DNA from: an uncultured virus (IMG/VR IMGVR_UViG_3300030060_006470) | Lineage: Duplodnaviria; Heunggongvirae; Uroviricota; Caudoviricetes | Length of the DNA: 20,000 bases | Reading direction: 5' to 3' (one strand) | IMG/VR virus record: IMGVR_UViG_3300030060_006470 | Shown here: positions 1-20,000 of the stretch, in pieces | Layout: every line of letters starts with the position of its first letter | Position numbering within the stretch: the stretch's first letter is position 1 | Made by a program: the position numbers and the translations under genes | Notes under the pieces: generated by a model | Told to the model about the DNA's origin: nothing | The model's database searches: none | The model's input: the letters and a program-made list of their open reading frames with translations, nothing else

Positions 1-1
1 G

Positions 2-163
2 GAAATAATATTAAAAGAAGAATTATTTGAAGACTTGACTCAAGGGTGGAAAGAAGAGGAACATTTATCTCAATCAGATGTGTATGTTTACAAAGAATTA
101 CTTGCTGAAGTTAGAACTCTAAAATGGTTCTTACATATTCTAATTAAAGAAGGAAAAGATTAA
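2..163 (+). CDS. 3' part of a hypothetical protein, truncated by the window edge
   Basis: Open frame EIILKEELFEDLTQGW...KEGKD* ending at TAA 161-163, translated by hand. Confidence 0.6.
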   Translation, partial: EIILKEELFEDLTQGWKEEEHLSQSDVYVYKELLAEVRTLKWFLHILIKEGKD

Positions 164-179
164 AAAAAATTACTATGGA

Positions 180-211
180 TTTGGTTATTAATATAATTTT
201 ACTTATCTTAG
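180..211 (+). promoter_or_regulatory. Bacteroidota-type sigma-A promoter (-33/-7)
   Basis: TTTG-N20-TATCTTAG; the known consensus is TTTG-N19-21-TAnnTTTG. Confidence 0.65.
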
Positions 212-260
212 GACTATATATAATGAGAAACTTATTTTTAGAACTAAAACAAGAAGACGT

Positions 261-380
261 ATGAAAAAATTAGATTTATTTTTAACACTATTGGTTGGGC
301 TTACAATGATTACAAGTGTGTTACATTACATAGAGAAAAGCTACCTATTTGTTGCTGGTAGACTTAAAAGAATTAAATAA
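261..380 (+). CDS. 39-aa hydrophobic peptide
   Basis: MKKLDLFLTLLVGLTMITSVLHYIEKSYLFVAGRLKRIK, between a promoter and a terminator; below the ORF-track cutoff. Confidence 0.4.
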   Translation: MKKLDLFLTLLVGLTMITSVLHYIEKSYLFVAGRLKRIK

Positions 381-408
381 TATTTTTGTTTCTGTTTTAT
401 TGGTTAGG

Positions 409-439
409 AGGGTGCATCTTTTAGGTGCATCTTTTTTTT
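409..439 (+). terminator. Intrinsic terminator
   Basis: gggtgcatct-ttt-aggtgcatct stem with G-U pairs, followed by a T-run. Confidence 0.6.
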
Positions 440-446
440 GTTTTAA

Positions 447-478
447 TTTGGTAGTTTAAATATAATTCCTTATATTAG
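447..478 (+). promoter_or_regulatory. Bacteroidota-type promoter
   Basis: TTTG-N20-TATATTAG, then tattctaaac. Confidence 0.7.
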
Positions 479-503
479 TATTCTAAACAGAAAAATATAA
501 GAG

Positions 504-710
504 ATGGTAAAAGATTTAGAGTATTATAGATTGAATTGCGAAGAAAACTATTTACATACACCAATAAGTGTATTGAGATATATTAAAGAATTGGAAAAGA
601 ATAATGAGAAAGTAAAAAGTGTAGTTTCTGAATTAAGAGATATTGCGTGGGATAATGCTACTGACAACTTTACCTATACAAGAATAAATGATTTATTAGA
701 AGATGTTTAG
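504..710 (+). CDS. Hypothetical phage protein (68 aa)
   Basis: ORF downstream of a promoter, A-rich start context. Confidence 0.75.
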   Translation: MVKDLEYYRLNCEENYLHTPISVLRYIKELEKNNEKVKSVVSELRDIAWDNATDNFTYTRINDLLEDV

Positions 711-714
711 TTAA

Positions 715-766
715 TTATAACGGTATAAGTAAATACCGTTTTAATGGAATTTAATTAATGTTATAC
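715..766. other. attC-like recombination site S1
   Basis: TAAC(718)...GTTA(760) with inner stem taaataccgtt/aatggaattta; left spacer 2 nt longer than right. Confidence 0.6.
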
Positions 767-784
767 ACTTTAAAATTAATATAA

Positions 785-967
785 ATGGAAAAGACAATTA
801 ATGATTTAATAAAAGATTTGCAGGCACTAAAGCCAGAGTTAAGAGAATTACCCGTAAAAATAAAAGCTGAAAATGGTTTGTTGTTTGAACCTAAAGCAAA
901 GGTTTTAGTAAATGAGAACCAAACGTTTATACATGAAGCTGAACAAATGATAATAACTTACGATTAA
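785..967 (+). CDS. Hypothetical protein (60 aa), cassette-borne
   Basis: ORF lying between attC-like sites S1 and S2. Confidence 0.75.
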   Translation: MEKTINDLIKDLQALKPELRELPVKIKAENGLLFEPKAKVLVNENQTFIHEAEQMIITYD

Positions 968-976
968 TTTTATTGT

Positions 977-1069
977 TTATAACGTTGAGTATAAATGCCG
1001 TTGCGATATACGGCACTAAATTAAAAAGATATGAGTAAAGAAAGCAATGGAATTTATACAGTGTTACCT
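977..1069. other. attC-like recombination site S2
   Basis: TAAC(980)-N5-gtataaatgccgttgc...gcaatggaatttatac-N3-GTTA(1063); 14 of 16 stem positions Watson-Crick. Confidence 0.65.
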
Positions 1070-1237
1070 ACCGTTTATCCTTTGATTGATAATAAACGAT
1101 GGTACGCTGAGAATGGAACAGTTTATAATGAAGCGGATGAAGACTTTAGAATCTTAATGGTTTGCGGAGAAAATAGTGAAATGAACTTACCTAATGATGT
1201 AGCAGAAAAAATAGCTGAATATCTAAATGGTAGGTAA
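1031..1237 (+). CDS. Hypothetical protein (68 aa), cassette-borne
   Basis: ATG lies in the loop of S2; the stop codon is the TAA of the terminal TAAC. Confidence 0.7.
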   Translation: MSKESNGIYTVLPTVYPLIDNKRWYAENGTVYNEADEDFRILMVCGENSEMNLPNDVAEKIAEYLNGR

Positions 1238-1292
1238 CAACTATGTAATGACACCTTTGCAGAGTCCATATAAACTGTAAATCAATTAATTA
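1235..1292 (+). repeat. attI-like array-end site with IHF-consensus box, copy 1
   Basis: 35 of 42 nt identical to the reverse complement of 18304-18345; AATCAA-TTAA-TTA at 1280-1292. Confidence 0.6.
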
Positions 1293-1305
1293 AACTGTTA
1301 TTTAA

Positions 1306-1337
1306 TTTGTTATATTAAATATTATTCCTTATATTAG
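1306..1337 (+). promoter_or_regulatory. Bacteroidota-type promoter, probably leaderless transcript
   Basis: TTTG-N20-TATATTAG-N4-ATG. Confidence 0.7.
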
Positions 1338-1341
1338 TATT

Positions 1342-1530
1342 ATGAAAAGATATTACGAGCAATGGATGGGTGGGAAGATTAAATATACAGTTAATTTCCA
1401 CGATGGTGTGCAAACACATAAGGATGGTTCACCGTTCTATGGTGTAGCCGTATTTAAAAACAAAAGAAAAAAGAATGACTTCGTTAAGAGGTTAGTTAGT
1501 GAGGGTTATACCATAAGACCTAACTATTAA
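1342..1530 (+). CDS. Hypothetical phage protein (62 aa)
   Basis: ORF directly after a promoter. Confidence 0.8.
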   Translation: MKRYYEQWMGGKIKYTVNFHDGVQTHKDGSPFYGVAVFKNKRKKNDFVKRLVSEGYTIRPNY

Positions 1531-1554
1531 TACTGTAATGAGCTACGTATTTAA

Positions 1555-1586
1555 TTTGTTATATTAAATAATATTTACTATATTAG
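1555..1586 (+). promoter_or_regulatory. Bacteroidota-type promoter, probably leaderless transcript
   Basis: TTTG-N20-TATATTAG-N4-ATG; near copy of 1306-1337. Confidence 0.7.
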
Positions 1587-1590
1587 CGTT

Positions 1591-1857
1591 ATGGAATTAT
1601 TTATAGATATTAAAGATAAGGTACACAATTCAAGTGGTATAGAAAAACCTCAAAATTATTATTGGGGTAAAGATGTTACTACTAATGGTATGTATTATCT
1701 TATAAGACTTATTGATGAAGATGAAATTCATGAAGAAATAAGAGAGTTCTTATATGCTAATGATAATCTACCTAATATTAGTCTGGATGAAATACCTTTG
1801 GATACATTTACAACTGAACAATTAGAACGTAGAGATTTTTTTATGAGTATGTTTTAA
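1591..1857 (+). CDS. Hypothetical protein (88 aa)
   Basis: ORF directly after a promoter. Confidence 0.75.
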   Translation: MELFIDIKDKVHNSSGIEKPQNYYWGKDVTTNGMYYLIRLIDEDEIHEEIREFLYANDNLPNISLDEIPLDTFTTEQLERRDFFMSMF

Positions 1858-1878
1858 TTTGTTAATAAAACGTGAATT

Positions 1879-2097
1879 ATGATAAAAATTGGTGAAAAAG
1901 TTAAAATGTCAGATGACCTAAAAGAAGGTTTGGTTAAAAACGGTTGTATAGACCACGTTAAAGAATTTGGGAATTGTGAAGGTATGGTTGAATCATGGGT
2001 TTATCCAAATACAGATATAAAAGAAGTGAATGTTAGGTGGAAACCCTCAAATCTAAGGTACGCATATGATATTGATATGTTGACCAATGTTTTATAA
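1879..2097 (+). CDS. Hypothetical protein (72 aa), possibly SH3/KOW-like and a decayed cassette
   Basis: IKIGEKVKM...EGMV...VNVRW pattern; flanks resemble cassette ends. Confidence 0.7.
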   Translation: MIKIGEKVKMSDDLKEGLVKNGCIDHVKEFGNCEGMVESWVYPNTDIKEVNVRWKPSNLRYAYDIDMLTNVL

Positions 2098-2142
2098 TGC
2101 TACAACTAAACACAGTTATAAATATTATTTCTTATAATATTG

Positions 2143-2213
2143 TAATGAGTTAGGTCATCTCACAAGGTGGTAAATCTCGGATATTACGTGGCGTCTGAGT
2201 GCCTAACCCATTA
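2143..2213 (+). ncRNA. Candidate structured RNA (long hairpin)
   Basis: taatgagttaggtcatctca pairs with tgagtgcctaacccatta; relatively GC-rich, intergenic, upstream of a terminator. Confidence 0.35.
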
Positions 2214-2242
2214 TTAAATAATAGACACATTTGTGTATATTG

Positions 2243-2278
2243 AAAAAGGGAGAGCGGATAAACCACTTTCCCTTTTTT
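2243..2278. terminator. Bidirectional intrinsic terminator
   Basis: aaaaagggagagcgg-ataaa-ccactttccctttttt between convergent units. Confidence 0.65.
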
Positions 2279-2431
2279 AGTTTAAACCAATAAAACTAAT
2301 CTTATCCAATTAATATCATAACTTGTTGTCCAGTCCAGATTATATTATCTAACTTGCTAGACTTATGCGAATGTAATAATAATTTACCACTAACCCAAAT
2401 TATACCACAAAATAATATCTTATTCATCTTT

Positions 2432-2665
2432 TTAAATTATAGGTGTTATTGTTTCAATAGTAACTGTCTTCAAGTCTTCATCACCACTTATACACATACC
2501 ATCAATATGATTACTAACACTACAAGAGTGTTGCTCATTTAGACAGAATATGTTTGTATCTGAAAACATAACTTGTTCTTGTACCCACTCAAAAATATCA
2601 TCAAATGATGCTTTTTCACTAAAGAAAAGTGTTGTGGAATTTCCGTTTATAAATATCTGTTTCAT
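2432..2665 (-). CDS. Hypothetical protein (77 aa)
   Basis: Own minus-strand promoter at 2670-2701. Confidence 0.75.
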   Translation of the reverse strand: MKQIFINGNSTTLFFSEKASFDDIFEWVQEQVMFSDTNIFCLNEQHSCSVSNHIDGMCISGDEDLKTVTIETITPII

Positions 2666-2669
2666 AATG

Positions 2670-2701
2670 CTAATATAAGAATTAATATTCGATTTACCAA
2701 A
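2670..2701 (-). promoter_or_regulatory. Bacteroidota-type promoter, probably leaderless transcript
   Basis: Minus strand TTTG-N20-TATATTAG-catt-ATG. Confidence 0.7.
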
Positions 2702-2721
2702 TATTAAATAAAATAAAAATA

Positions 2722-2795
2722 TATTAAATAATATTAGGAATATCTAAATAAGTTTATTATCTTAGTACTCTAACCAATTAAAACAAATAACAATG
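2722..2795 (+). promoter_or_regulatory. Promoter plus leader block, near-identical to 3139-3212
   Basis: TTAG-N20-TATCTTAG-tacTCTAAC...aaaacaaataacaATG. Confidence 0.7.
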
Positions 2796-3086
2796 AGATT
2801 AATTACAAAAAAATCAGTTGAAGCTTTTAATAACGCTAAAGCATTTAAGAATTCTAATACAGAAATTGAGGTATTTCCAAACGTAACTGTAATGAAGTTA
2901 TTCGGTAACGAAATAGCATATAGATATAACGACCCTAAGAGAACGCTAAGTATAACGAATTGTGGTTGGAAGAGTAATACGACAAAGGAAAGATTAAACG
3001 CTATTAGTGGTGTTAATATACAACAAAAAAAGGGTGTTTGGTATTTGAACGGTAAAGAATGGAACGGTAACTTAATTGATGTTTGA
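2793..3086 (+). CDS. Hypothetical phage protein (97 aa)
   Basis: Promoter-ORF-terminator unit; LFGNEIA and GWKSNTTKERLNA resemble a recurrent phage family. Confidence 0.85.
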   Translation: MRLITKKSVEAFNNAKAFKNSNTEIEVFPNVTVMKLFGNEIAYRYNDPKRTLSITNCGWKSNTTKERLNAISGVNIQQKKGVWYLNGKEWNGNLIDV

Positions 3087-3467: not shown

Positions 3468-3480
3468 CACCCAACACAAT

Positions 3481-3700
3481 TAAATTAAAGGTAGTCCAAT
3501 CGGCTACCTTTTTTTATGACCAGGAATTAATTATAAGACCATTTTAAAGCCATTTAAGACACTATTATAATTAAATGGATATAGATTACCACTTAATTAA
3601 TAAACCACCTTAAAACCTATTAATTAATTAAATAAAAAAATATTACTTTTTATTTGCATATGTCAAATATTCTTATATATTTTATTATATAGGGAAATTG
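3481..3700 (+). repeat. ~220-bp intergenic repeat U1 (terminator, inverted-repeat module, TTTGCATATGTCAAA...TATAGGG core)
   Basis: Collinear with 4023-4242, 5880-6102 and 6659-6880; terminator at 3487-3515. Confidence 0.85.
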
Positions 3701-3745
3701 ACATTTAAAATTATCTTGACCAGGGAAAAATTTTTAAAAATAAAG

Positions 3746-3790
3746 CTTGTGGGGACAAAATAAAATTACTATATTAGTGGTCTAACTTTT
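3746..3790 (+). promoter_or_regulatory. Bacteroidota-type promoter with TCTAAC start motif
   Basis: CTTG-N20-TATATTAG-tggTCTAACtttt. Confidence 0.65.
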
Positions 3791-3802
3791 AAAGTTTGAA
3801 TT

Positions 3803-4009
3803 ATGAGAGGAATTTATTACAATGAACTTAACGGGAACACTTACTTAGTTCTTAACGTGGAAAACAATGTTGTTCATGTTAATAGTGTAGTGGTTAGCAG
3901 AATAGGTACTATGCTAAAAGTATTGGACGGTGTCAGAGGTATACCTTTAGATGTTTTTGAAAAGTTTAAACATAGTGGAAACTATACTAAGGAAGACATA
4001 AATGATTAG
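3803..4009 (+). CDS. Hypothetical protein (68 aa)
   Basis: Promoter-ORF-terminator unit. Confidence 0.8.
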   Translation: MRGIYYNELNGNTYLVLNVENNVVHVNSVVVSRIGTMLKVLDGVRGIPLDVFEKFKHSGNYTKEDIND

Positions 4010-4022
4010 TCTTCTTTAAACT

Positions 4023-4242
4023 CTAATTAAAGGATAGTTAATAGCTATCCTTTTTTTATGCTCAGTAATTAAATCTAAGGTTATTTTTAAGCCACCTATA
4101 AAACCTTTATAATTAAATGGACATAGATTATAGTATCATAACTGAACTTGCCTTAAAACAGCTTTAAATATTAATTTAAATAAATATTAATTATTATTTG
4201 CATATGTCAAAATTTTTTTTATATTTTATATATAGGGAAATT
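4023..4242 (+). repeat. Intergenic repeat U2
   Basis: Terminator 4029-4057, arms 4076-4091 and 4152-4166, core 4197-4241. Confidence 0.85.
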
Positions 4243-4250
4243 TCAGATAT

Positions 4251-4273
4251 AAAAAAAGGGAGCAACTGCCCCC
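4251..4273 (-). terminator. Intrinsic terminator
   Basis: Minus strand ggggcagttgctccc followed by T7, downstream of ORF 4300-4554. Confidence 0.6.
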
Positions 4274-4299
4274 ATAACCAATAAACCAAATTAATACCT

Positions 4300-4554
4300 T
4301 TACTCCTCATTTAAATCCCCCCATAACATCTTACATAATATGTCTGAATCATTTTCAACATCTTTAATTCTTTGCTTAATCTTTTTTCTTAACTCAAGAG
4401 TTTCCTCATCAGTATCACAACCAAGCCAAGCGTCATCAAGTTCAGACTCGTGAGCATCTTTCAATCCCCATAAATCTTTAATAGTGTCCTCAACTAAAAC
4501 CTTATTGTTGAAATCGAACTTGTCCATGTTTGTTAATATTCTAAATCCATTCAT
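4300..4554 (-). CDS. Hypothetical protein (84 aa)
   Basis: Own promoter TTTG-N19-TAACTTAG-taaTCTAAC at 4611-4572 and a terminator. Confidence 0.8.
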   Translation of the reverse strand: MNGFRILTNMDKFDFNNKVLVEDTIKDLWGLKDAHESELDDAWLGCDTDEETLELRKKIKQRIKDVENDSDILCKMLWGDLNEE

Positions 4555-5864: not shown

Positions 5865-5879
5865 TAGGGTTAATAAGAT

Positions 5880-6102
5880 AAATTAAAGGGTAGTTTAAAA
5901 GCTACCCTTTTTTTATACCCTAACATTAAATCTAAGGCTATTTTTAAGCTATCTAATGAACTATAATATTTATATGGATATAGATTATATTATCATAATA
6001 AAAAATCGCTTAAAACAGCCTTAAATGATATTTTAATTAAATATTAAATAAAGTTTGCATATGTCAAATATTCTATTATATTTTAATATATAGGGGAAAT
6101 TT
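5880..6102 (+). repeat. Intergenic repeat U4
   Basis: Terminator 5885-5914, arms 5933-5949 and 6008-6023, core 6054-6100. Confidence 0.85.
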
Positions 6103-6122
6103 GAAATTAAATTAAATATTGT

Positions 6123-6162
6123 TTTGTATAACTCAAGTATTTTTTTATATTTGTGGTCTAAC
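6123..6162 (+). promoter_or_regulatory. Consensus Bacteroidota promoter
   Basis: TTTG-N19-TATATTTG-tggTCTAAC. Confidence 0.8.
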
Positions 6163-6191
6163 CAATATTTTTTAACTTAAATTTTTTTATT

Positions 6192-6641
6192 ATGGACAAC
6201 AGAAACATAGAAGTAAAATTAGCAAATTCTTTTCATTATGAAATTGAAAACTTGTCTTTAGATGCTCAAAAATTAATTAGAACTCAAGAAAGTGGTAAGT
6301 ACGATACTTTTTCTTTTGTTAATGCACCCGCAAAGGTTAATTGGTGTGGCACTTGTAACGGTACAGGTAAAAGAAGTATTTATGATGTGCAAGGTTATGA
6401 TATTGACAGAATGATGAATACAGGAGATTACGAGGCAGATATGGAATTTAGAGAAGATTATTTTGGTGGTAAAACTGATACTTGTTGTGATGTTTGTGAA
6501 GGTACAAAAATTCAAAATGAAGTAGATTACGATTCATTGAATGAATTACAAAATGAAATTTTTGAAGCTAATTGGAAATGTTATAGGGAAGAAGCGCAAG
6601 ACAGAGCAGAAGAAGAAGCAGAGAGAAGAGCAGGTTGTTAA
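6192..6641 (+). CDS. DnaJ-type CxxCxGxG zinc-finger protein (149 aa)
   Basis: CGTCNGTG and CDVCEGTK motifs; no J-domain HPD motif. Confidence 0.75.
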   Translation: MDNRNIEVKLANSFHYEIENLSLDAQKLIRTQESGKYDTFSFVNAPAKVNWCGTCNGTGKRSIYDVQGYDIDRMMNTGDYEADMEFREDYFGGKTDTCCDVCEGTKIQNEVDYDSLNELQNEIFEANWKCYREEAQDRAEEEAERRAGC

Positions 6642-6658
6642 TTTGCTCTTATAGTTTA

Positions 6659-6880
6659 TAAATTTAAAGGTAGTCTAATAGGCTACCTTTTTTTATGTCT
6701 AATAATTAAATCTAAGACTATTTTTAAGCTATCTAATAGAATATAATACTTAAATGGATATAGATTACCACTTAATTAATAAAACACTCTTAAAACAGTC
6801 TTAAATGATATTTTAAATAAATATTAAATAAAGTTTGCATATGTCAAATATTCTGTTATATTTTATTATATAGGTAAAAT
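6659..6880 (+). repeat. Intergenic repeat U5
   Basis: Terminator 6666-6694, arms 6713-6728 and 6789-6803, core 6834-6880; an extra core variant follows at 6899-6945. Confidence 0.85.
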
Positions 6881-6960
6881 AAAAAAAATCACTTTTTATT
6901 TGGTAGTGTTAAATATTTTTCTATATTCTATTATATAGGGCAAATTAAATTAAATATTGT

Positions 6961-7804: not shown

Positions 7805-8227
7805 ATGAAGTCACTTATAAAGAAGTTATTGAGGGAAGAATTGGTAAATAAATTAATCAGGTTAGAGATTGACGAGGTTCATAAACCTGGTGAATATACT
7901 CACGAAAATGTAAAGTTAGAAGACTTATATGTTTTAGAAAAAAATATGAATGAAGCTTGGAACATTAAGGGTGGTTCTAAAACTAAAGACCCCTTAGAGG
8001 TATTTCAAATGTTAGATAATAGTAAATTTTTACTTGACGGTCATCATAGGGTTTGTGATTATATAATTAAAAGTGGTATTATAGATAAAGAAGAAATTCT
8101 TAAATTAGAGATATATTCTAATATATTACAAACACCTATTAAAAATTCGATAGAAGCTTTAGGTGCAAAACTTTTTAATGGTTACATACCCTTTATTGAA
8201 TGGTTAAAAAAAATTAACATATATTAA
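7805..8227 (+). CDS. ParB/Srx-like N-terminal-domain protein with conserved leader
   Basis: DPLEV...LLDGHHRV motif; N-terminus MKSLIKKLLREEL. Confidence 0.7.
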   Translation: MKSLIKKLLREELVNKLIRLEIDEVHKPGEYTHENVKLEDLYVLEKNMNEAWNIKGGSKTKDPLEVFQMLDNSKFLLDGHHRVCDYIIKSGIIDKEEILKLEIYSNILQTPIKNSIEALGAKLFNGYIPFIEWLKKINIY

Positions 8228-8273
8228 GTCTCTTTTTAAAAAAATATTTTTTGGTAAATTTTTGGTTAATTTT

Positions 8274-9080
8274 TTAGGGGGTAGTAATATTTTCAATACT
8301 AGTAACTAATACTTTCTTAACGCTTATTTCGGTTTCTTTATCTGTGATATTTCCTGTTGTAATATCTTTAGGGTTAAATTTAAAAGTAATTAATACTTCT
8401 TCATCAGCTAATTCTGAATAGTAATCTAAAACATATTGTTTATTTAGTGATAGATATATACCGTTACCTGGCATGGTAAGGACTTTACCTACTTTAATGT
8501 CTAGATTTAGTCTGGCGTTTGCGCCAGATGATATTTTACCATTTATAAGTGGCATAACCTTGTAACCCGTTAAAGTTGTATTAGTTTGGTTTGTTGATTC
8601 GTCTAATGACATTAATATTCTGTCTTGTGATATATCAGCAACCTTATAAAACCCATATTTGTTTGCTAATATTTTGGCTAACTTTGGGTTTATAACATCT
8701 ACCTCCATTTTAAATTCATCACCATACATGTCTTTTCTAAAATTAAACTCGTCAATGGCAGCTTGAATTAGTTTGTGTGATAACCCCATATTTTGATACC
8801 CATAATCTATTGCTATATCAAATGAAAAGTTTTCATTATCATTGTTAATCCAAATAGCGCCAATAACTCTATTATTATTTGTATCTATTAGTAGTCCGTT
8901 AAGTTCTTTATCTCTAAGTATGGTAACCCCTCCGTCTTTAGCTATTTTTTCAGCTTCATCTGCAGCTTCATATTCATCAATATCAAACTCAGATAAATCA
9001 ACATCGTCATGATAAGATACTAATTCATATTTTTCATTTAGCAGTCCTTCTCTAAGCAATTTTTTGATTAATTGTTTCAT
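8274..9080 (-). CDS. GNAT acetyltransferase plus possible ART-like C-terminal domain, with leader
   Basis: VIGAIW...FDIAIDYGYQNMGLSHKLI matches GNAT motif A; C-terminal GYKVM...GIYLS...ETEISV; leader MKQLIKKLLREGLLNE. Confidence 0.7.
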   Translation of the reverse strand: MKQLIKKLLREGLLNEKYELVSYHDDVDLSEFDIDEYEAADEAEKIAKDGGVTILRDKELNGLLIDTNNNRVIGAIWINNDNENFSFDIAIDYGYQNMGLSHKLIQAAIDEFNFRKDMYGDEFKMEVDVINPKLAKILANKYGFYKVADISQDRILMSLDESTNQTNTTLTGYKVMPLINGKISSGANARLNLDIKVGKVLTMPGNGIYLSLNKQYVLDYYSELADEEVLITFKFNPKDITTGNITDKETEISVKKVLVTSIENITTP

Positions 9081-9093
9081 GTATTAATTGTTT

Positions 9094-9663
9094 TTATTTC
9101 CACAATGATTTATCAGTAGGTGTTATATTGTAAACATCATTACCAAATATAACGTTGGTTACTTTAAATAGGCTTTTATCAAACAAACAAACATCATTAT
9201 ATGGTTGATTCATAATTTTCATATCAGTGAACCAAGAATCGTAATTTGTATTTTGTTTAAGGTATGGTGCTAGGTCTGCAAAATGATTCAAATCAAGTTC
9301 ATAAATCATTTCTTCCATCTCATCCCATGTTGTTTTAAATGTATTTTTTGCGTATGATTCAGCTTCAACTAAAAAGAGTAGTCCTCCACCGCTCTTATCA
9401 GATTTAAGACCAGCAAATTCCCTACCTGTAGATATATCATCTGTAAACCAATAGAAACCATCTTGTACCCTAGATTGGATATATTTTTGGAAAAAGTTAT
9501 TAATCTCAACCTTATCTGATGATAAGTTGTTCTTACTTAAAAAATCTTCCAATTTCCATATACCTGGTATAACGCCCCCATGATATAGTTTTGAATTAAG
9601 CCCTTCTTTGGTTATTTCACCTAATAATGATTCTCTTAGCAATTTTTTGATTAAGTGTTTCAT
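9094..9663 (-). CDS. Divergent ADP-ribosyltransferase-like protein with leader
   Basis: LYHGG...FYWFTDD...EFA...YDS...VCLFD; leader MKHLIKKLLRESLLGE. Confidence 0.6.
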   Translation of the reverse strand: MKHLIKKLLRESLLGEITKEGLNSKLYHGGVIPGIWKLEDFLSKNNLSSDKVEINNFFQKYIQSRVQDGFYWFTDDISTGREFAGLKSDKSGGGLLFLVEAESYAKNTFKTTWDEMEEMIYELDLNHFADLAPYLKQNTNYDSWFTDMKIMNQPYNDVCLFDKSLFKVTNVIFGNDVYNITPTDKSLWK

Positions 9664-9680
9664 CTATATATAAATATAAG

Positions 9681-10550
9681 TTAAAGATATGGGTTTAATG
9701 GTAATTCCCTATCATCTGGGTTATATTTGATTAATTGTTTATTTATTATATTTAGTTTATTTGCTTTATATACACATACGATAGGATTACCCCAATTAGT
9801 TGTATAGACTCCATCAATACCTAACTTAAGGAAAAACATTGTTGCCTTTCTAAGGCTATTAAAATGTGCTGCAATATAAAAATATAATGCATTAAAATTA
9901 GTTTCTAAATCTTCAAGACGTAATTCATTATAATAATCGTCCACATTTGGTGCAATGTCACTCAAATATATTTCTTCTTTATAATCAATCGTATTAACGG
10001 TTTTTAAAAAGTTAAAAACTTCTTCTTCACCTTTTAAATTTTTAGCCACCTCTTTATTTGTTTTTTCATCCCAAATAACCCACGTATTTGGTTTATAACC
10101 GTCATCTATAGCCCATTGTGGTAGTTCATCACCAAACCTATCCCAAGTATATGATATGTTATTTTCACCAATATGTAGACTATCAAAATCAAAAGTATCT
10201 AAAAGGTTAGATTCAAAAAATTTATAAAAATTAGGTATTTTATTAACTTTTTCTTTAATATAATCTGGTATGTCTCCGTGAAAATTTATTAAGTTCATAT
10301 TGGGGGGCATTTCTAAAGTATAAAGGTAACCATCCTTACTATCCTTTAATGCATACCCTTTAGCTTGGTCAATTTCTGGGGTTATATATACACCGTAACC
10401 TTCTGTAGCCCACCCAGGCTCATCTGGTGAATCACCCCATTTTAATTTAGGATATGGACTTCCATGATAATATCTATCATTTTTTGGGTTAAATTCATTT
10501 TTCTCATCCAACAACCCTTCTCTAAGCAATTTTTTTATTAAGTGTTTCAT
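9681..10550 (-). CDS. ADP-ribosyltransferase-like (ART-PolyVal-type) protein with leader
   Basis: YYHGS...GYGVYIT...AKGYA...GYLY...GIDGV; leader MKHLIKKLLREGLLDE. Confidence 0.7.
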   Translation of the reverse strand: MKHLIKKLLREGLLDEKNEFNPKNDRYYHGSPYPKLKWGDSPDEPGWATEGYGVYITPEIDQAKGYALKDSKDGYLYTLEMPPNMNLINFHGDIPDYIKEKVNKIPNFYKFFESNLLDTFDFDSLHIGENNISYTWDRFGDELPQWAIDDGYKPNTWVIWDEKTNKEVAKNLKGEEEVFNFLKTVNTIDYKEEIYLSDIAPNVDDYYNELRLEDLETNFNALYFYIAAHFNSLRKATMFFLKLGIDGVYTTNWGNPIVCVYKANKLNIINKQLIKYNPDDRELPLNPYL

Positions 10551-10581
10551 CTGTATATAAGTTAAGGTTCATAACCTAGAT

Positions 10582-11913
10582 TTAAGTTTTTTCTATTCTT
10601 TTTTTATGGGCTGACATAATATCTTGGAGGATATGGTCATTATTTAAGCGTTTAATAAAATCTTTATCATTAATCATCAAATTGTACATCTTTTTTGGGT
10701 TAGGATGATATTTTAACAATTCATCTATAGCCCCTTTGTCCTTATATAATTTTTCTCTAAAATCTTTGTTTTTAAATATAGTATCCACAATTTCTTCTGG
10801 ATTTTTAAAGCTGTTAGAAAAGTAAGCCAATGCTGTGTTCATTTTAGATATAACACTATCATAGCTTAATAATAATTTAACTAAGTTATTTTTGTCATTA
10901 CCCTTCATATCTGGGACCTCTATAAAATATGCCATATCTTCACTATCAATTATACCATTTATTTCATCTTCTGTTAAGTTGTTGATAAATTTATCAAACT
11001 CATCACCAAATTGCCTTAATATTTGTGGGTTTTCTGAGGTTTTTAAAATATTTAACATTTCAGCCTTGTCAATTAAACTTGGTCTGTTCTTTAACAGGTA
11101 TTTAAAGTTTTCTTCAGAAAAATCACCTACACTAAAGTTTCCAATTGAATCATATGATTCGCTCGTTCTTAAATCGTGAACCATATTACTATCTACCAGT
11201 AACCAAAGGATATATTTATGATATTTTTCATTTGGTTTTTCGTTACTTTTACCTCTTATTTGTATAACATATTTTTCTGTTGGGTGCCAATCTATTGTAA
11301 CATGCTCCCTGTTGTTTTTACGTAAGTGTAATAAATACATGCCATCATCTTGGGCTTCCCCACAATGACCCATAGATTCTTTAGACTTTTCACAATAATT
11401 ACTTTCAGTTAAAGCCCAATAATAACCATCATTGAATTTGTGAATTACTTTAACATTATCATCAATACCTTTAATTTCACCACCTACTTCAAGTGACTGG
11501 TGCCATTTGTCTGACATTTTAATAGCTTCATCCCATGTATATTGTTTTAGGTTAACTGAAGGTGTGCTTGGAGCTTCGCTCCAGTCTGTAATATACTTAT
11601 ACGATGGTAAAAGAGAGTCTAGTACTTCCTTAAAACTTAATTTATTTATATTAATATTTGGTTTATTTGTTGTTGTGAAAAATTTGATTATTTTTTCAAG
11701 GTCACGTCTTTTTTCAATTAAAAAACGTTTAGGGTCCTCTGGGTAATTAACCTTAGCTTGATTAGCTATCCATATAGAGTATTTATCAGATATATCGTGC
11801 GAAATATCAGCAGCCTCTTGGTCTAGGCCAATTTTATTTATAATAACCTTCCTATTATCCTTTTCGGTTAACAGCAGTCCTTCTCTTAGCAATTTTTTAA
11901 TTAAATGTTTCAT
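10582..11913 (-). CDS. PcfJ-like domain protein with leader
   Basis: MGHCG...LLHLRK...HVTID...IQIRGKSN; paralog of 15424-16910. Confidence 0.7.
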   Translation of the reverse strand: MKHLIKKLLREGLLLTEKDNRKVIINKIGLDQEAADISHDISDKYSIWIANQAKVNYPEDPKRFLIEKRRDLEKIIKFFTTTNKPNININKLSFKEVLDSLLPSYKYITDWSEAPSTPSVNLKQYTWDEAIKMSDKWHQSLEVGGEIKGIDDNVKVIHKFNDGYYWALTESNYCEKSKESMGHCGEAQDDGMYLLHLRKNNREHVTIDWHPTEKYVIQIRGKSNEKPNEKYHKYILWLLVDSNMVHDLRTSESYDSIGNFSVGDFSEENFKYLLKNRPSLIDKAEMLNILKTSENPQILRQFGDEFDKFINNLTEDEINGIIDSEDMAYFIEVPDMKGNDKNNLVKLLLSYDSVISKMNTALAYFSNSFKNPEEIVDTIFKNKDFREKLYKDKGAIDELLKYHPNPKKMYNLMINDKDFIKRLNNDHILQDIMSAHKKRIEKT

Positions 11914-11924
11914 TATTTGTTTTT

Positions 11925-13682
11925 TTAGATTCCTTCCGCACCGAATATTTTCATCACTTTTTCAGGGTGCTTTGAAAAGCTTATTAGTCTTCGTTTACTT
12001 TTTTCGTCTACATTATCAATAAATTCTTTACCTATAACCCCTAATATGTTCATTATCTTTTCTGGTTCTTCGGATTTAGTCAGTAGAAAATAAAACCTAT
12101 CTTGATTTTCTTCACCTCCTCCACCTAAAGAAGTTACAAATTCTTTACCTACATCCCCTAGTAAGTTATACAACCTTTCAGGTATTTTTGATTTTATTAG
12201 TAGAGCACGTATAATGCTATAAGAATCTGAGTCTTTTAGATTAGAGACATATTCTTTAAACTTATCACCCAACATATTTGCCACCTTTTCAGGTTCTTTT
12301 GAGAGGTTTAATAATTCATTTACCGTCATCATGCCACTAATATCCAAAATTCTACCATCTACTCTTGTCATCTTTAAATCTAAATTAGATATAAAATCTT
12401 TATGGTTTAATAACATATTAATCACCTTTTCGGGTTCTTCTGAGGATGTTACTAACGTGGTCACACCTAAATCGTTTGAATTACTTATATACGCATTCCT
12501 TTCTTTTTCTGGTAATAAAGATAACTCACCATATGTCAATCCTTCATACTTTTGTAGTTTAATTCTAATAACCCTTAATTGTTGTTTTGTAGATAATAAA
12601 TTAGTTTGTTCTTTACCCTTTGCTAAAAAATAACCACTTTCAATTAATGAATCCAACACTTCTGGTCTAAGCGATTTAATATTTTCATTACTTATTTTTA
12701 TATCTTCGGCATATAAATCTCTAATAAAATCTTTAGCTTCTACTTGACTACCATTAATAATTAAACCCTTTATTTCCTGGTCAATATAACCCTGTAGATT
12801 ATCATCATCATACCCCTTTGCCCATTTTATTATGTCTTCGTATCTTTTCTCATCCTCACTAATTTCTTGATATGGAAAATATTCTTCCAAACCGTAAAGG
12901 TTTGGTATTTCATTTTCTATATATTCCCATGATTCGTTATCGTCTTGGTTACCTCCAGCTCTGTCACCTTCATTACTTCTATCAGCAATAGCGTAGCCAT
13001 CTGGGTAATGCATGATAACTAATTTATGCTCGTCACCTTCTACGTTTTTTTGTAATACAAAATAAGGGGTAGCTCTATATTTAACTCTATATGTATTATA
13101 GAAATTTTCTTCAGCCTCTGAAATACACCATGATTCGCCTTGCCCGTATCTAACACACTTCGCTTTTGTGTTTGTGTCAAGTATAATAATGTCATCGTCT
13201 TCATAAACAACATCATCATCTTTAGGGTTATATATATCATTATCTTGCTTAATCGAAGTATCTTTAATCCATTTATTATTATTCACCAAATCAACCAAAC
13301 TCTTTTCTATTTTATCATTCATAGTCTTATTAGTTGGAAAAGGTCTGGCCTCATCGCCAAGTGATTTAATGTTTTTAACATAAGCATCAAGAAACTTCTT
13401 GGCTAAATCTTTATTATCAATAAATGCTGTAGTTTTAATCATTTTATTGATAGTGCTGTCGTACCAAGATTTAAATAAAGTGTCTAACTGGTCTTTAGAT
13501 TTAATTTGTTGTATATTACCAAAACTATTCTTAAATAAACCAGCAATGGCTAATTTATTTAATGTATCATCTGAAGAATCACCAATCTTTTTGGTAACGC
13601 CATTAATTATTTTATCGTTATATAAACTATTTTCGGTTAATAACAGTCCTTCTCTAAGCAATTTTTTGATTAAGTGTTTCAT
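11925..13682 (-). CDS. 585-aa protein with WCI motif (PcfJ-related?), C-terminal helical repeats and leader
   Basis: CVRYGQGESWCIS...FYNTY...PYFVL; five S-x-x-P-E-K/R repeats; leader MKHLIKKLLREGLLLTE. Confidence 0.65.
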   Translation of the reverse strand: MKHLIKKLLREGLLLTENSLYNDKIINGVTKKIGDSSDDTLNKLAIAGLFKNSFGNIQQIKSKDQLDTLFKSWYDSTINKMIKTTAFIDNKDLAKKFLDAYVKNIKSLGDEARPFPTNKTMNDKIEKSLVDLVNNNKWIKDTSIKQDNDIYNPKDDDVVYEDDDIIILDTNTKAKCVRYGQGESWCISEAEENFYNTYRVKYRATPYFVLQKNVEGDEHKLVIMHYPDGYAIADRSNEGDRAGGNQDDNESWEYIENEIPNLYGLEEYFPYQEISEDEKRYEDIIKWAKGYDDDNLQGYIDQEIKGLIINGSQVEAKDFIRDLYAEDIKISNENIKSLRPEVLDSLIESGYFLAKGKEQTNLLSTKQQLRVIRIKLQKYEGLTYGELSLLPEKERNAYISNSNDLGVTTLVTSSEEPEKVINMLLNHKDFISNLDLKMTRVDGRILDISGMMTVNELLNLSKEPEKVANMLGDKFKEYVSNLKDSDSYSIIRALLIKSKIPERLYNLLGDVGKEFVTSLGGGGEENQDRFYFLLTKSEEPEKIMNILGVIGKEFIDNVDEKSKRRLISFSKHPEKVMKIFGAEGI

Positions 13683-17400: not shown

Positions 17401-17778
17401 TTATTCGGTTAAGTTTTTATATTCTTCTGTTGACATTAGGTTATTTAATTCTGATGTGTCTGACATTTTTATTTTAACAATCCATCCATCACCGTAGGGG
17501 TCGTTATTGATTAGTTCTGGGTCATCTTCCAGGTTTTCATTTACCTCGAATATTGTACCTGTGACTGGTTGAAATAGGTCTGAAACGGTTTTAACTGCTT
17601 CTATTGTTCCGAATACTTCATCAGCGTCAAGTTCTTCGTCTAGGGTTTCCACTTCAACGTATACTATATCACCTAGTGCTGATTGTGCGAAGTCTGTCAC
17701 TCCAACTGTTGCTATATCGCCATTAACTTGAACCCATTCGTGTTCATTTGTGTAGTATAGATTTTCTGGTGTTTTCAT
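17401..17778 (-). CDS. gcvH: Glycine cleavage system H protein (lipoyl carrier)
   Basis: YTNEHEW, VGVTDFAQSALGDIVYVE, IEAVKTVSD (lipoyl lysine), INNDPYGDGW. Confidence 0.97.
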   Translation of the reverse strand: MKTPENLYYTNEHEWVQVNGDIATVGVTDFAQSALGDIVYVEVETLDEELDADEVFGTIEAVKTVSDLFQPVTGTIFEVNENLEDDPELINNDPYGDGWIVKIKMSDTSELNNLMSTEEYKNLTE

Positions 17779-19412: not shown

Positions 19413-19486
19413 AATATTAAATTGTTTATTATATAAATATTAAAATTCTACCCTAAAATACTTTTTGTTTTTTCATAATAAACGTT

Positions 19487-19551
19487 TTATAACAAGGTTT
19501 ATACTCCATATTCCGCTACGCTCCATACGTAGCATACACTAATCGTTATAT
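19487..19551. other. attC-like site S3
   Basis: TAACAA(19490)...CGTTA(19544), inner stem gtttatact/agcatacac, spacers 3 and 5 nt. Confidence 0.6.
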
Positions 19552-19590
19552 TTAATGCGGTGGTAGCGACTTTCTTTATTGCAATAGTCC

Positions 19591-19662
19591 TCATGTTAAC
19601 CAAGACCTAATTTCAATTGCGTGGCACTCGCTCAATGTTGCAATCATTGTTTTACCTATCAT
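19591..19662 (-). CDS. Possible 23-aa cassette peptide
   Basis: MIGKTMIATLSECHAIEIRSWLT in the S3-S4 cassette; may be non-coding. Confidence 0.2.
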   Translation of the reverse strand: MIGKTMIATLSECHAIEIRSWLT

Positions 19663-19687
19663 ACCAACAAGTTTTTACCGCACTAAA

Positions 19688-19742
19688 ATATAACAATATA
19701 TATAAGCCATAGAAAAAACGGCTCATATAATAACCGTTATAA
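19688..19742. other. attC-like site S4
   Basis: TAACAA(19691)...CGTTA(19735), stem tatataagcca/cggctcatata. Confidence 0.65.
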
Positions 19743-19880
19743 AACATTATCACGTAAATAATCTTTTGCTAATTTCCATGCGTGTGGAGTAATATAACAA
19801 CTAAACCCTTTAATACATACACCATTTTTCCAAATAGATGCTCTAAACTTTTCATATTTTATTTCTATTTTATCTTCCAT
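19737..19880 (-). CDS. 47-aa cassette-borne protein, not in the ORF track
   Basis: MEDKIEIKYEKFRASIWKNGVCIKGFSCYITPHAWKLAKDYLRDNVL; fills the S4-S5 interval and stops inside the site core. Confidence 0.7.
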   Translation of the reverse strand: MEDKIEIKYEKFRASIWKNGVCIKGFSCYITPHAWKLAKDYLRDNVL

Positions 19881-19892
19881 TTTTAAAACGTT

Positions 19893-19953
19893 TTATAACA
19901 ATGTATATAATTAACTCCATTTCATTCCGCAAATCATATACGGAACGTTATAA
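19893..19953. other. attC-like site S5
   Basis: TAACAA(19896)...CGTTA(19946), stem gtatataatt/aatcatatac, spacers 3 and 5 nt. Confidence 0.65.
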
Positions 19954-20000
19954 GCCATTAAGTATTTGCCATAAACTAATTAAATCGTTTTTATTTAGCT

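Follow-up and report, generated by a model that had tools for sequence, protein, structure and literature searches.

Phage genomes are mosaics, but little is known of how single small genes pass from one phage to an unrelated one. Only two proposals have been made so far for movement of this kind: the PeSLs of T4-type phages and a small number of attC clusters.

The attC sites of integrons are imperfect palindromes of 50-150 nt. Their inverted core of AAC and GTT triplets is followed by a spacer without pairing, a paired L-type stem and a top that varies between sites. One of the two strands, marked by extrahelical bases, is the one that folds and recombines, and the sites form arrays with single small ORFs, in which the first bases of a cassette pair with its own inverse core. 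In sedentary chromosomal integrons of the “inverted integrase” group, integrase and cassettes have the same orientation. REP elements are abundant, short, imperfect extragenic palindromes with a strand-specific structure, dispersed in the genome and associated with HUH tyrosine-transposase-like partners.

CALINs are groups of two or more neighboring attC sites that have no integrase close by. Qi et al. 2023 reported attC clusters in virulent phages, with 17 CALINs in 10,705 phage genomes according to the part of that paper used here (PMC9892861). The definition of attC applied below is the general one, compared with the aadA7 site printed in Table S3 of the same paper. PeSLs, as described by Arbiol et al. 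2010 (PMC2839356) and Comeau et al. 2014 (PMC4122927), consist of a sigma-70 promoter and a G/C-rich terminator and act through about 100 bp of homology. They are repeated intergenic stem-loop motifs that flank ORFans in hyperplastic early regions and mark indel or replacement boundaries between phages, and mini-circles have been proposed or detected. The section of the IntegronFinder 2.0 paper used here describes the Bacteroidetes as almost devoid of complete integrons and names only Salinibacter ruber (PMC9024848).

The window analyzed here is a stretch of 20,000 nucleotides from an uncultured virus. Its left-hand region is best read as part of a single-gene cassette array in the early region of a marine phage whose host is presumably a member of the Bacteroidota. 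On the sequence evidence, it seems somewhat better than an even chance that the genes between its hairpins are integron-like cassettes of a phage that itself lacks an integrase, as in the phage CALINs of Qi et al. 2023.

Hairpin sites of the window and their family

The sites were scored with R1, a covariance model built from other phage contigs alone, with the window excluded. The features of the window are:

448-476, + strand: sigma-70-like promoter, TTGKTA-N17-TATATTAG, of a separate repeat family that belongs to the array context and is not part of a hairpin site; further copies at 1307-1335, 1556-1584 and, on the minus strand, 2700-2672
708-771, + strand: hairpin site 1, a weak member (R1 25.4 bits; E 0.001 for a search of the window), with TAACG at 718-722, TGTTA at 759-763, two mismatches in the upper stem and a GTTTTAAT-like loop
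785-967, + strand: cassette ORF 1, 60 aa, no known family
970-1074, + strand: hairpin site 2, long form (R1 53.5 bits on the + strand versus 15.8 on the - strand), with TAACG at 980-984, 15-nt stem arms at 989-1003 and 1045-1059, and TGTTA at 1062-1066
1031-1237, + strand: cassette ORF 2, 68 aa, no known family
1062-1077, + strand: left arm of a cassette-end inverted repeat, TGTTA plus CCTACCGTTTA, within codons 11-16
1224-1239, + strand: right arm of the same repeat, TAAATGGTAGG plus TAAC, containing the stop codon
1235-1300, + strand: decayed third site (TAAC-AACTAT-GTAATGAC...), unconvincing as a hairpin
19482-19960, - strand: right array, with three strong sites at 19960-19888, 19749-19683 and 19558-19482

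R1 finds both of the imperfect palindromes that the initial annotation had placed at 715-766 and 977-1069, although ungapped self-complementarity of these stretches holds at only 18 of 52 and 32 of 93 positions. In the R1 alignment, TAAC stands at 718-721 in site 1 and at 980-983 in site 2, and GTTA at 760-763 and 1063-1066. A 3′ end of site 1 at 761-773 was dropped; the alignment agrees with GTTA at 760. Site 1 is a direct repeat of site 2 and an irregular, weak member of the family. It also resembles a weak terminator, followed by TTTTAA. Site 2 shows compensatory changes relative to the L035 copy, and a short-form homologue is present at 6748-6810 of contig L035.

The loop of site 2 contains a local hairpin (996-1015), an A-rich leader, the ATG at 1031 and the first 10 codons of cassette ORF 2. 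The sites do flank single small ORFs, as had been annotated, but site 2 is not simply a separator, since the start of an ORF sits in its loop. The third site reaches only 9.2 bits with R1 (1225-1308) and a fold energy of -3.8 kcal/mol. The three sites of the right array score 55.1, 49.5 and 44.3 bits and have one 47-aa ORF and one tiny ORF between them. The window holds five members of the family, two in the left array and three in the right. With sites 262 nt apart on the left (708-1074), three within 480 nt on the right (19482-19960) and no integrase in the 20 kb, both clusters would be CALINs only if the sites count as attC-like.

The base of the hairpin, TAACG...TGTTA, is conserved across the family; above it come an asymmetric internal loop (4 nt versus 2 nt) and an upper stem that covaries. 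Members fall into several loop classes and are 45-110 nt long. A pattern scan of the viral_contigs set found at least 128 loci and at least 110 distinct elements, of which 99 have a stem of 10 bp or longer. Cellulophaga phages carry members, Polaribacter phage P12002L has five, and copies are found in many Bacteroidota genomes. Among 104 aligned copies, 220 cells were changed on both sides, compared with 80 in shuffles, and none of 500 shuffles reached the observed covariation score. The attC-like anatomy proposed in the initial annotation is supported by the paired base, the asymmetric loop and the covarying stem, and the inverted core, the spacer, the paired stem and the variable top of the attC definition are all present. 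No attC-type bulged bases were identified in the hairpins. Like integron attC sites and CALINs, the family has the AAC/GTT inverted core and arrays of single small ORFs, and one of its strands appears to fold better.

The link to phage CALINs is direct in one case: P12002L_attC1 (PMC9892861) corresponds to 30005-30059 of contig L181, a match to the family covariance model, and belongs to this family. According to the legend of figure 2, it was predicted by HattCI only, and of the six phage sites tested there with IntI1, it alone failed to recombine (PMC9892861). It is the sole family member ever assayed at the bench. Unlike the phage CALINs reported in that part of the paper, the present family is far commoner, and its tested member was inactive with IntI1. 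Our literature search located no description of this hairpin family or of integron-like arrays in Bacteroidota.

The structure is specific to one strand. On the folding strand, 99 cells are G-T or T-G versus 4 that are A-C or C-A, and model scores drop by about 30 bits on the reverse strand. In phages, genes lie on the folding strand at 59 of 67 elements, whereas in bacteria this holds at only 12 of 71 elements for the downstream gene and 19 of 71 for the upstream gene. Since the gene strand is opposite in the two settings, the folding bias follows the DNA and not the mRNA, and the hairpin structure is selected on one DNA strand whatever the direction of transcription.

This result bears on the idea that the hairpins are RNA processing or stability signals (RNase III-like), with the gene ends forming a 5′-3′ panhandle in polycistronic early transcripts and mobility being incidental. 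The RNase III sites of phage T7 are of similar size and have an asymmetric internal loop, as do these hairpins of about 25-30 bp in total. Moreover, in phages the folding strand is mostly the sense strand, G-U pairs are kept at two positions, in 97 and in 72 of the 104 copies, and the covariation of the gene ends described below fits selection for pairing. However, the genes of the bacterial arrays are mostly on the other strand, and the G-T pairs of the folding strand become A-C mismatches in their mRNA. Rfam, which has no attC family, gave no family match for the window and 11 hairpin-bearing loci at E up to 1, the sole match being a chance one to snoR143. The junctions at the boxes and the neighboring recombinase would also go unexplained, and this explanation is considered very unlikely.

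The family also recalls REP elements in being abundant, short, imperfect, intergenic and strand-specific, if the general description of REPs is followed. Unlike REPs, these hairpins bracket single genes with gene-specific complementary ends, and their partner is a tyrosine recombinase and not an HUH enzyme.

Single-gene units in unrelated phages

At 96-100% identity, the unit at 980-1238 is found again in phage contigs that are unrelated elsewhere, which supports the movement of single genes proposed for this array. A complete 79.9-kb phage has only this unit (97.7%) in common with the window, even by tblastx. Another contig shares 1045-1243 (96.5%) and one 21-codon match over a right-array hairpin (19480-19542), and nothing else, again even by tblastx. 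Cassette ORF 2 is found at 96-100% nucleotide identity in L034, L035, L043, L044 and L042; contigs L043, L044 and L045 provide further contexts for the unit, and L042 begins exactly at 980. Cassette ORF 1 has a 70% identical homologue with unrelated flanks in L032/L033, and the unit at 718-983 is present at 100% identity in sequencing run X4, with a different upstream flank. Neither product has a real match in Pfam or PHROG, and the 30 protein clusters matching ORF 2 are all unnamed or “hypothetical protein”.

On the right, homology with L034, L043, L044 and L045 stops at 1237-1239 and that with L035 at 1243; the right junction of the mobile unit is the TAAC at 1235-1238. In runs X3 and X5, contigs continue into other sequence at 1235/1236, and contigs from public runs do so at 717/718 and 765/766, with a break also at 983. 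The public-run contigs are short unitigs, able to reveal junctions but not circles or rare variants. The exchange junction is mostly at TAAC, and the hairpin moves with its downstream ORF. The comparisons show movement of single-gene units of about 260 bp from one phage to unrelated ones, the junctions falling at the boxes.

The crossover at G^TT that had been suggested for these sites fares less well. Most junctions are indeed at a box, namely TAAC, but in most comparisons they are not at GTTA, and some are off the AAC/GTT triplet altogether (1017, ~1062). The left junctions of the cassette ORF 2 unit are staggered (968, 980, 1017, ~1034 and ~1062), which counts against the integron-like reading, since a single crossover point does not predict a stagger. 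Homologous exchange between conserved sites probably adds further junctions.

Such exchange is at the heart of the main rival explanation, in which the hairpins serve between genes as conserved elements with a regulatory or structural role, such as terminators, attenuators or processing signals, and short homology drives a PeSL-like shuffling by general phage recombination, with no dedicated site-specific recombinase in the phage. In the part of PMC2839356 used here, composite motifs that flank ORFans recombine, delete or insert ORFans and make mini-circles. As this explanation would have it, the staggered junctions at 968, 1017 and ~1062 lie within the conserved leader or blocks of conserved sequence, and the hairpins are built into expression: an RBS and ATG lie within the loop at 980-1066 and likewise in that of a second gene, in L045. 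True terminator-promoter repeats also occur in the window. The promoter motif TTGKTA-N17-TATATTAG has 11 matches versus 2.6 expected and belongs to the direct-repeat family D1/D2; a terminator at 406-436 is followed by the promoter at 448-476, and these, with the 230-bp repeats, are PeSL-like units.

However, no promoter motif was found within the sites at 718-763 and 980-1066, which thus lack the combination of promoter and terminator that makes up a PeSL. When the hairpins themselves were considered as sigma-70 or Bacteroidetes-type promoters, the spacing was wrong, as judged by eye. The strand bias independent of transcription also speaks against PeSL-like shuffling, and the conserved blocks, at 14-16 nt, are short for homologous exchange of 97%-identical units in unrelated flanks. 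The family sites are like PeSLs in their repeated intergenic stem-loops, their place beside ORFans and their coincidence with indel boundaries. They differ in having no promoter, a stem based on AAC/GTT, complementary ends specific to the cassette and bacterial relatives beside a recombinase. PeSL-like shuffling is considered rather unlikely as the explanation for this array, though a contender to be taken seriously.

Searches elsewhere gave a few limits to the distribution of the sequence. No homologue of cassette ORF 2 was found among 301 sampled genomes of the class, a sample that does not prove absence. ORF 504-710 had no relative in viral_contigs, an exact 47-nt string of the window was absent from the same set, and neither blastn with window positions 1-3000 nor tblastn with a 522-aa window protein gave a match in 50,697 phage records. 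Loci with the Kyano_Gp96-like gene (2793-3086) were discarded from the boundary analysis; only that gene is common to them and the window. A joint that “goes back” from 1699 to 1301 in one contig of run X3 was rejected as a sign of a circle, as it sits in the promoter repeats.

Complementary cassette ends

An inverted repeat that continues the TAAC/GTTA boxes brackets each gene between sites. The coordinates and counts given for these repeats in the initial annotation are correct: 760-780 pairs with 963-983 at 18 of 21 positions, and 1063-1075 with 1226-1238 at 12 of 13. Comparison with dinucleotide shuffles of window positions 1-2200 separates the two. A repeat of 18/21 or better at a distance of 100-400 nt was found in none of 30 shuffles, whereas one of 12/13 or better is unremarkable on its own (three in the real sequence, a shuffle mean of 1.7, and three reached in 8 of 30 shuffles). 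The second repeat nevertheless extends to 15 of 16 paired positions (1062-1077 with 1224-1239) and covaries. Where the window has CCTACCGTTTA/TAAATGGTAGG, distant homologues in L046-L051 carry CCTGCTGTTTA/TAAATAGCAGG. The difference amounts to two compensatory double changes, both of them made at the cost of an amino-acid change, and they show that the pairing of the cassette ends is under selection. It follows from this covariation that both ends must meet in one folded site.

The pairing is general in the family. When the 8 nt after the GTTA of one site were compared with the 8 nt before the TAAC of the next, 7 of 27 consecutive pairs matched at 8/8, 3 at 7/8 and 7 at 6/8, versus 1.0%, 3.9% and 10.7% in controls. 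In a second set, which includes bacterial arrays, 11 of 36 pairs reached at least 7/8. The fourth base of the box covaries as well across cassettes (GTTG..CAAC, GTTC..GAAC). An outward extension of the stem within the same hairpin was rejected, as the two flanks of a given site are not complementary above the level of the controls, with 8/8 pairing in only 4 of 124 cases. In the window, the ends of the right-array cassettes pair at 8/8 (19887..19750) and 6/8. The strict 8-nt ends of the first left cassette pair at only 5/8, which, like the weakness of site 1, counts against the integron-like reading. Pairing of a cassette's first bases with its own inverse core is found both in the window and in the family, as in integron cassettes.

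These data contradict the notion that the pattern arose by chance from AT-rich intergenic DNA and ordinary terminators, with TAAC being a stop codon TAA followed by C. The TAA does end the gene at 1235-1237, as it does in 22 of 67 phage elements, site 1 is terminator-like, and a lone 12/13 repeat is within chance. However, the family has at least 110 distinct covarying members, the window-free model gives 53.5 and 55.1 bits to sites of the window, the 18/21 repeat is not matched in shuffles, and the end signature is far above controls. Chance is considered extremely improbable. In PeSL-like shuffling, exchange anywhere within a site would likewise preserve the end signature; the covariation of the cassette ends under selection counts against it.

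Recombinases and the proposed movement

Under the preferred integron-like reading, the TAAC...GTTA elements would be attC-like recombination sites that form imperfect hairpins. The conserved base, TAACG paired with TGTTA, would carry the AAC/GTT triplets as the point of strand exchange, and above it would lie an unpaired spacer and then a stem and loop that vary. By recombination between two such sites, one unit, C-hairpin-GTTA-gene-TAA, would be excised or inserted. In the excised circle, the two ends of the gene would together rebuild the base of one site, which may be why they stay complementary; excision and insertion of units in this way may also be why neighbors differ between phages. 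The enzyme would be a tyrosine recombinase that acts on the folded single strand, and circular intermediates would be expected.

The initial annotation ascribed the insertion of these ORFs to an IntI-like recombinase encoded in the phage or its host. On the phage side, none was found: no PF00589 gene is present among the 30 ORFs of at least 55 aa in the window, and no tyrosine recombinase was found in 10 viral records. Both results count against the integron-like reading, and the second fits PeSL-like shuffling. Eight of the ten are known hairpin carriers and six are at least 90% complete; G003, one of these six, and G004 were chosen through a gene homologue, and neither is known to have the hairpin. 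The integrase of phage phi13:2 is not IntI-like. Since the phage records searched encode none, such a recombinase would probably be supplied by the host.

Bacterial chromosomes of the Bacteroidota offer a candidate. At 8 of 11 loci examined (G006, G007, G008 with two loci, G028, G040, and G041 with two loci), co-oriented arrays of the same sites adjoin the gene of a tyrosine recombinase with XerA and IntI as relatives, as arrays adjoin a recombinase in integrons; such a neighbor would not be expected from PeSL-like shuffling. At two of the 11 loci, G014 and G048, direct scans found no hairpins beside the recombinase homologue, which counts against the integron-like reading. A genome-wide model search, in which 150 candidates per genome were scored, had missed sites near several recombinase homologues that direct scans of the stretches found. 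The arrays lie 3′ of the XerA/IntI-like gene and on the strand opposite to it. In these six genomes, the recombinase gene and the cassette ORFs are on one strand with the arrays downstream, as in the “inverted integrase” integrons; unlike in that group, the recombinase is not a curated IntI. In L319, one hairpin lies 0.3 kb upstream of a recombinase gene.

The best NCBIfam models for the bacterial recombinase are the integron integrase and XerA. Its scores against TIGR02249 are 197-203 bits, below the cut-off of 265, and the match comes in two stretches that skip model positions 180-240, the IntI-specific segment. An adjacent IntI with the IntI-specific domain, as in a complete integron, was found neither in the window and the 10 viral records nor in the bacterial arrays. 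What stands of the annotated IntI-like enzyme is an IntI-related gene, lacking the IntI segment, beside bacterial arrays. The phage arrays differ from integrons in other ways, too: it is the folding (“bottom-like”) strand that carries the ORFs, each hairpin moves ahead of the ORF to which it belongs, on its upstream side, and some sites enclose a start codon. The opposite orientation of the ORFs and the lack of a cassette ORF 2 homologue in the 301 genomes give no support to a cassette pool shared by phages and bacteria, and count against the integron-like reading.

Taken together, the hairpin family and the bacterial arrays beside a recombinase suggest that these phages shuffle single genes much as integrons do. 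A bolder version, which we regard as tentative and a little short of an even chance, is that the Bacteroidota have a widespread, unrecognized integron-like system, consisting of a XerA/IntI-related recombinase without the IntI insert and its own attC-like sites. Marine phages of this phylum would have packed their early regions with hundreds of cassettes bounded by such sites, and the host enzyme or some phage enzyme would swap single early genes between unrelated phages.

The site family, the selected cassette signature, the near-identical 260-bp units and the candidate recombinase of the host phylum make this a question that can be tested at the bench. If true, integron-type gene capture would extend to the Bacteroidota, where the standard finder reports almost none, and to the early regions of lytic phages, where counter-defense genes accumulate. 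It would also provide a simple sequence rule to delimit mobile phage genes in metagenomes. The early genes swapped in this way would possibly be counter-defense genes, such as the DNA methyltransferases of P12002L, which are flanked by sites of this family.

Hairpin sites in the window and in other genomes

Positions 1–2200 of the window form a series of small ORFs, all on the plus strand, with two repeat systems between them: a sigma-70-like promoter repeat and hairpin elements bounded by TAAC and GTTA. Relatives of ORF 1031–1237 in L034 (a locus of phage G001) and in locus L035 bear similar elements at further gene junctions, and these look-alikes supplied the family pattern TAAC-N5-GTATA...TATAC-NN-TGTTA. 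A scan of viral contigs with this pattern gave at least 128 loci, corresponding to at least 110 distinct elements, 99 of which have a stem of at least 10 bp; several contigs contain two or three copies, spaced 250–1400 nt apart. Cultured Cellulophaga phages have members of the family too, and Polaribacter phage P12002L has five sites, flanking DNA methyltransferase genes. No Rfam family matched the window or 11 loci with hairpins. When one genome per prokaryote species was scanned, the same pattern was found at 123 or more loci, mostly Bacteroidota (Flavobacteriales, Saprospiraceae, Cytophagales and others) among the matches listed; stems reach at least 10 bp in 81 of the 126 matches listed, and the poor-stem matches are probably due to chance.

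In 104 aligned viral copies, covariation was scored in free columns only, the conserved letters of the pattern being invariant by construction. Six pairs of the upper stem have changes on both sides, with 220 such cells against 80 in shuffles, and the observed score was reached in 0 of 500 shuffles. The upper stem is 96% paired, and 27–56% when the partner is slid. G-T closes the lower stem in 97 of the 104 copies, and a second G-T is retained in 72. A covariance model of these copies, all from outside the window, recovered five window sites, including both palindromes of the initial annotation.

Hairpin sites in the window (covariance-model score)
708–771, plus strand: site 1, 25.4 bits
970–1074, plus strand: site 2, 53.5 bits
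19482–19558, minus strand: right-array site, 44.3 bits
19683–19749, minus strand: right-array site, 49.5 bits
19888–19960, minus strand: right-array site, 55.1 bits

Wobble cells are strongly one-sided (99 G-T/T-G vs 4 A-C/C-A), and the score drops by about 30 bits on the opposite strand, which identifies a single folding strand. Phage genes flanking the hairpin lie on this strand at 59 of 67 evaluated elements (the other 43 of the 110 were too close to a locus end), whereas bacterial genes mostly lie opposite, being sense at only 12 of 71 elements downstream and 19 of 71 upstream. Because the strand bias does not follow transcription, it indicates that single-stranded DNA, and not mRNA, carries the structure. 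An RNA role for the hairpins would suit the phage orientation but not the bacterial one, and we judge it very improbable.

The AT-rich ATTAATTTTATTGTTTATAAC ahead of TAAC 980 (963–983) recurs in G001 at L034 5657–5678, there as the coding 3' end of a different gene, and the stretch before TAAC 980 agrees with the family's conserved 5' flank (...ATTGnnnnTAAC). A recurrent long site form of about 143 nt in bacterial arrays (L197, L316, L319, L206, L219) is perhaps a nested insert; the long forms of phages instead enclose a gene start (window 980–1066, L035 5910–6030, L045 1149–1259).

Cassette ends and movement between phages

The ends of each cassette had been proposed to be complementary to each other, and the counts were right: 18 of 21 for 760–780 against 963–983, and 12 of 13 for 1063–1075 against 1226–1238. 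In 30 dinucleotide shuffles of positions 1–2200, no inverted repeat of at least 18/21 arose at 100–400 nt, but repeats of 12/13 are unremarkable (3 in the real sequence vs a shuffle mean of 1.7). The second repeat is longer than first described (1062–1077 against 1224–1239, 15/16), and 715–740 and 977–1002 are direct repeats of one another.

Across the family, complementarity was scored for consecutive sites, between the 8 nt that follow GTTA in the first and the 8 nt that precede TAAC in the second. Pairing was 8/8 in 7 of 27 pairs (1.0% in shuffled flanks), 7/8 in 3 (3.9%) and 6/8 in 7 (10.7%), while the two flanks of one site pair no better than controls, with 8/8 in only 4 of 124. A second set of 36 pairs, from model hits including the window, P12002L and bacterial arrays, gave 8/8 in five and 7/8 in six; most of the pairs that fail span several kb, and sites between them were probably overlooked. 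Among these pairs, those of loci L314 and L315 are partly non-independent, some cassettes being duplicated. The proposed pattern is present in window and family. Chance or other explanations, with which the ordinary 12/13 repeat would agree, keep a small remainder of probability.

Cassette-end pairing in the window
764..979, plus strand: only 5/8
1063..1238, plus strand: 8/8
19682..19559, minus strand: 6/8
19887..19750, minus strand: 8/8

The fourth base of the box follows the cassette, GTTG going with CAAC and GTTC with GAAC across the gene and not within the site, in 4 of 6 close variant pairs. Homologues of ORF 1031 in L046–L051 (56–64% amino-acid identity) have CCTGCTGTTTA...TAAATAGCAGG in place of the window-type CCTACCGTTTA...TAAATGGTAGG. 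The difference consists of two compensatory double changes. Each costs an amino-acid substitution, near the N-terminus from T to A and at the C-terminus from G to S, and the pairing is under selection.

Complete, terminally repeated phage G001 (79.9 kb) has only 980–1238 in common with the window (97.7%), and contig G002 only 1045–1243 (96.5%) and one 21-codon match over the hairpin at 19480–19542. Sharing stays so limited even by tblastx, and G+C differs among the three (28.6%, 34.0% and 32.2%).

Metagenome contigs sharing the cassette
L042: identical to the window, starting exactly at 980
L043: 1017–1238, 98.6%
L044: 968–1237, 96.7%
L045: 1034–1239, 84.5%

Right junctions lie at 1237–1239 (1243 in L035) and left junctions at 968, 980, 1017, about 1034 and about 1062. 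Four public runs supplied short contigs in which junctions were also read: the unit 718–983 occurs at 100% identity with another upstream flank, joined at 717/718, in a contig that stops at 983, and in others the joints with foreign sequence lie at 765/766, 964/965 and 1235/1236. About 20 runs from 15 studies contain part of the window stretch. Homologues of ORF 785–967 in loci L032 and L033 are 70% identical and have no common flank and no hairpin. From such limited shared units in unrelated contexts, single genes, usually with the hairpin upstream of them, are concluded to have moved between unrelated phages. Junctions at the cores had been expected; most do fall at TAAC boxes, but some lie elsewhere.

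G001 has a second junction repeat, TAACGAATTTGGGTATGSTTAGATTTTTAACGATT, at L034 5233–5270 and 6203–6240, behind two different genes about 970 nt apart; one copy is directly behind its copy of the window cassette.

The recombinase and its precedents

A tyrosine recombinase in the phage, as the initial annotation allowed, was not found among the 30 window ORFs of at least 55 aa, nor in any of 10 viral records; six of these are 90% complete or more, and two (G003 and G004) were chosen for a gene homologue and are not known to have hairpins. An ordinary integrase lies 1 kb from the hairpin of phage phi13:2; it is not IntI-like.

The integron-integrase model has its best match near site clusters in five site-bearing bacterial genomes. 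Direct scans found arrays of co-oriented sites 3' of the recombinase gene. The sites lie on the strand opposite to it, and the cassette ORFs share its strand. The sites are 4.4 kb from the gene in Rufibacter (G006) and 3.5 kb in Tenacibaculum (G007), and a Saprospiraceae genome (G008) has two loci, one an array of at least 11 sites. Ten of 41 sampled Flavobacteriales genomes encode a homologue. Among six more copies scanned directly, the same geometry was seen at G028, G040 and G041 (two loci), and no sites at G014 and G048. The best NCBIfam models are integron integrase (197–203 bits, cut-off 265) and archaeal XerA/integron integrase (196–204 bits, cut-off 220). Because the protein scores below these cut-offs, aligns to IntI in two stretches that skip model positions 180–240, and is equally close to solved XerA and VchIntIA, it is related to IntI but does not pass the curated test. 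The integron-like array of the initial annotation was a real signal, and its kind was rightly named.

Screening 10,705 phage genomes, Qi et al. 2023 report 17 attC clusters without integrase, one of them in P12002L, and IntI1 recombined 5 of 6 phage sites tested (PMC9892861). The sole failure there is P12002L_attC1, predicted by HattCI only; it corresponds to L181 (P12002L) 30005–30059, a match of the present model. The IntegronFinder 2.0 account names one complete integron in Bacteroidetes (PMC9024848), and the literature searched yielded no description of this hairpin family or of the Bacteroidota arrays. The other precedent is that of PeSLs, promoter and stem-loop regulatory cassettes of T4-type phages, as outlined in PMC2839356 and PMC4122927. 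Junctions away from the boxes would fit sites that serve only as short homology for PeSL-like shuffling, but the complementary cassette ends and the bacterial arrays speak against this reading, which we consider rather unlikely. With modest confidence, we favor integron-like cassettes that a tyrosine recombinase, not encoded by the phage itself, would exchange at folded AAC/GTT sites.

Other repeats and genes of the window

The window (G+C 26–34%) has no tRNA genes, and its phage-type genes are a Kyano_Gp96-like gene, NUDIX, ART-PolyVal and GcvH. Blastn of positions 1–3000 against 50,697 phage records gave no match. The promoter repeat, TTGKTA-N17-TATATTAG, has 11 matches vs 2.6 expected.

Promoter repeats
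448, plus strand: sigma-70-like repeat
1307, plus strand: the same; 1307–1342 to the ATG
1556, plus strand: the same; 1556–1591 to the ATG
2700, minus strand: the same; 2700–2665 to the ATG

Since the -10 box ends only 7 nt ahead of the ATG of ORFs 1342–1530, 1591–1857 and 2432–2665 (minus), their mRNAs may be leaderless. At 2119–2280, a promoter-like repeat, about 130 nt without ORFs and a terminator (2246–2277) possibly encode a small RNA. A composite intergenic repeat of about 230 bp has four copies (3470–3805, 4015–4300, 5865–6195, 6645–6960; mean column identity 72%), each a terminator hairpin with T-run, a conserved spacer and a promoter-like TTTGCATATGTCAAATATTC...TATATAGGG, and resembles PeSLs as a terminator-promoter unit.

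Six adjacent proteins of 140–585 aa (7805–13682) have near-identical first 14 residues (MKHLIKKLLREGLL; MKSLIKKLLREEL in the plus-strand protein) and differ in the remainder; they matched no PHROG and no Pfam family beyond weak sub-threshold GNAT, STN and PcfJ. This common leader may act as a signal for targeting or processing. The glycine-cleavage H protein gene (17401–17778; PF01597, 160 bits) lies within a phage-like region and is a possible auxiliary metabolic gene.
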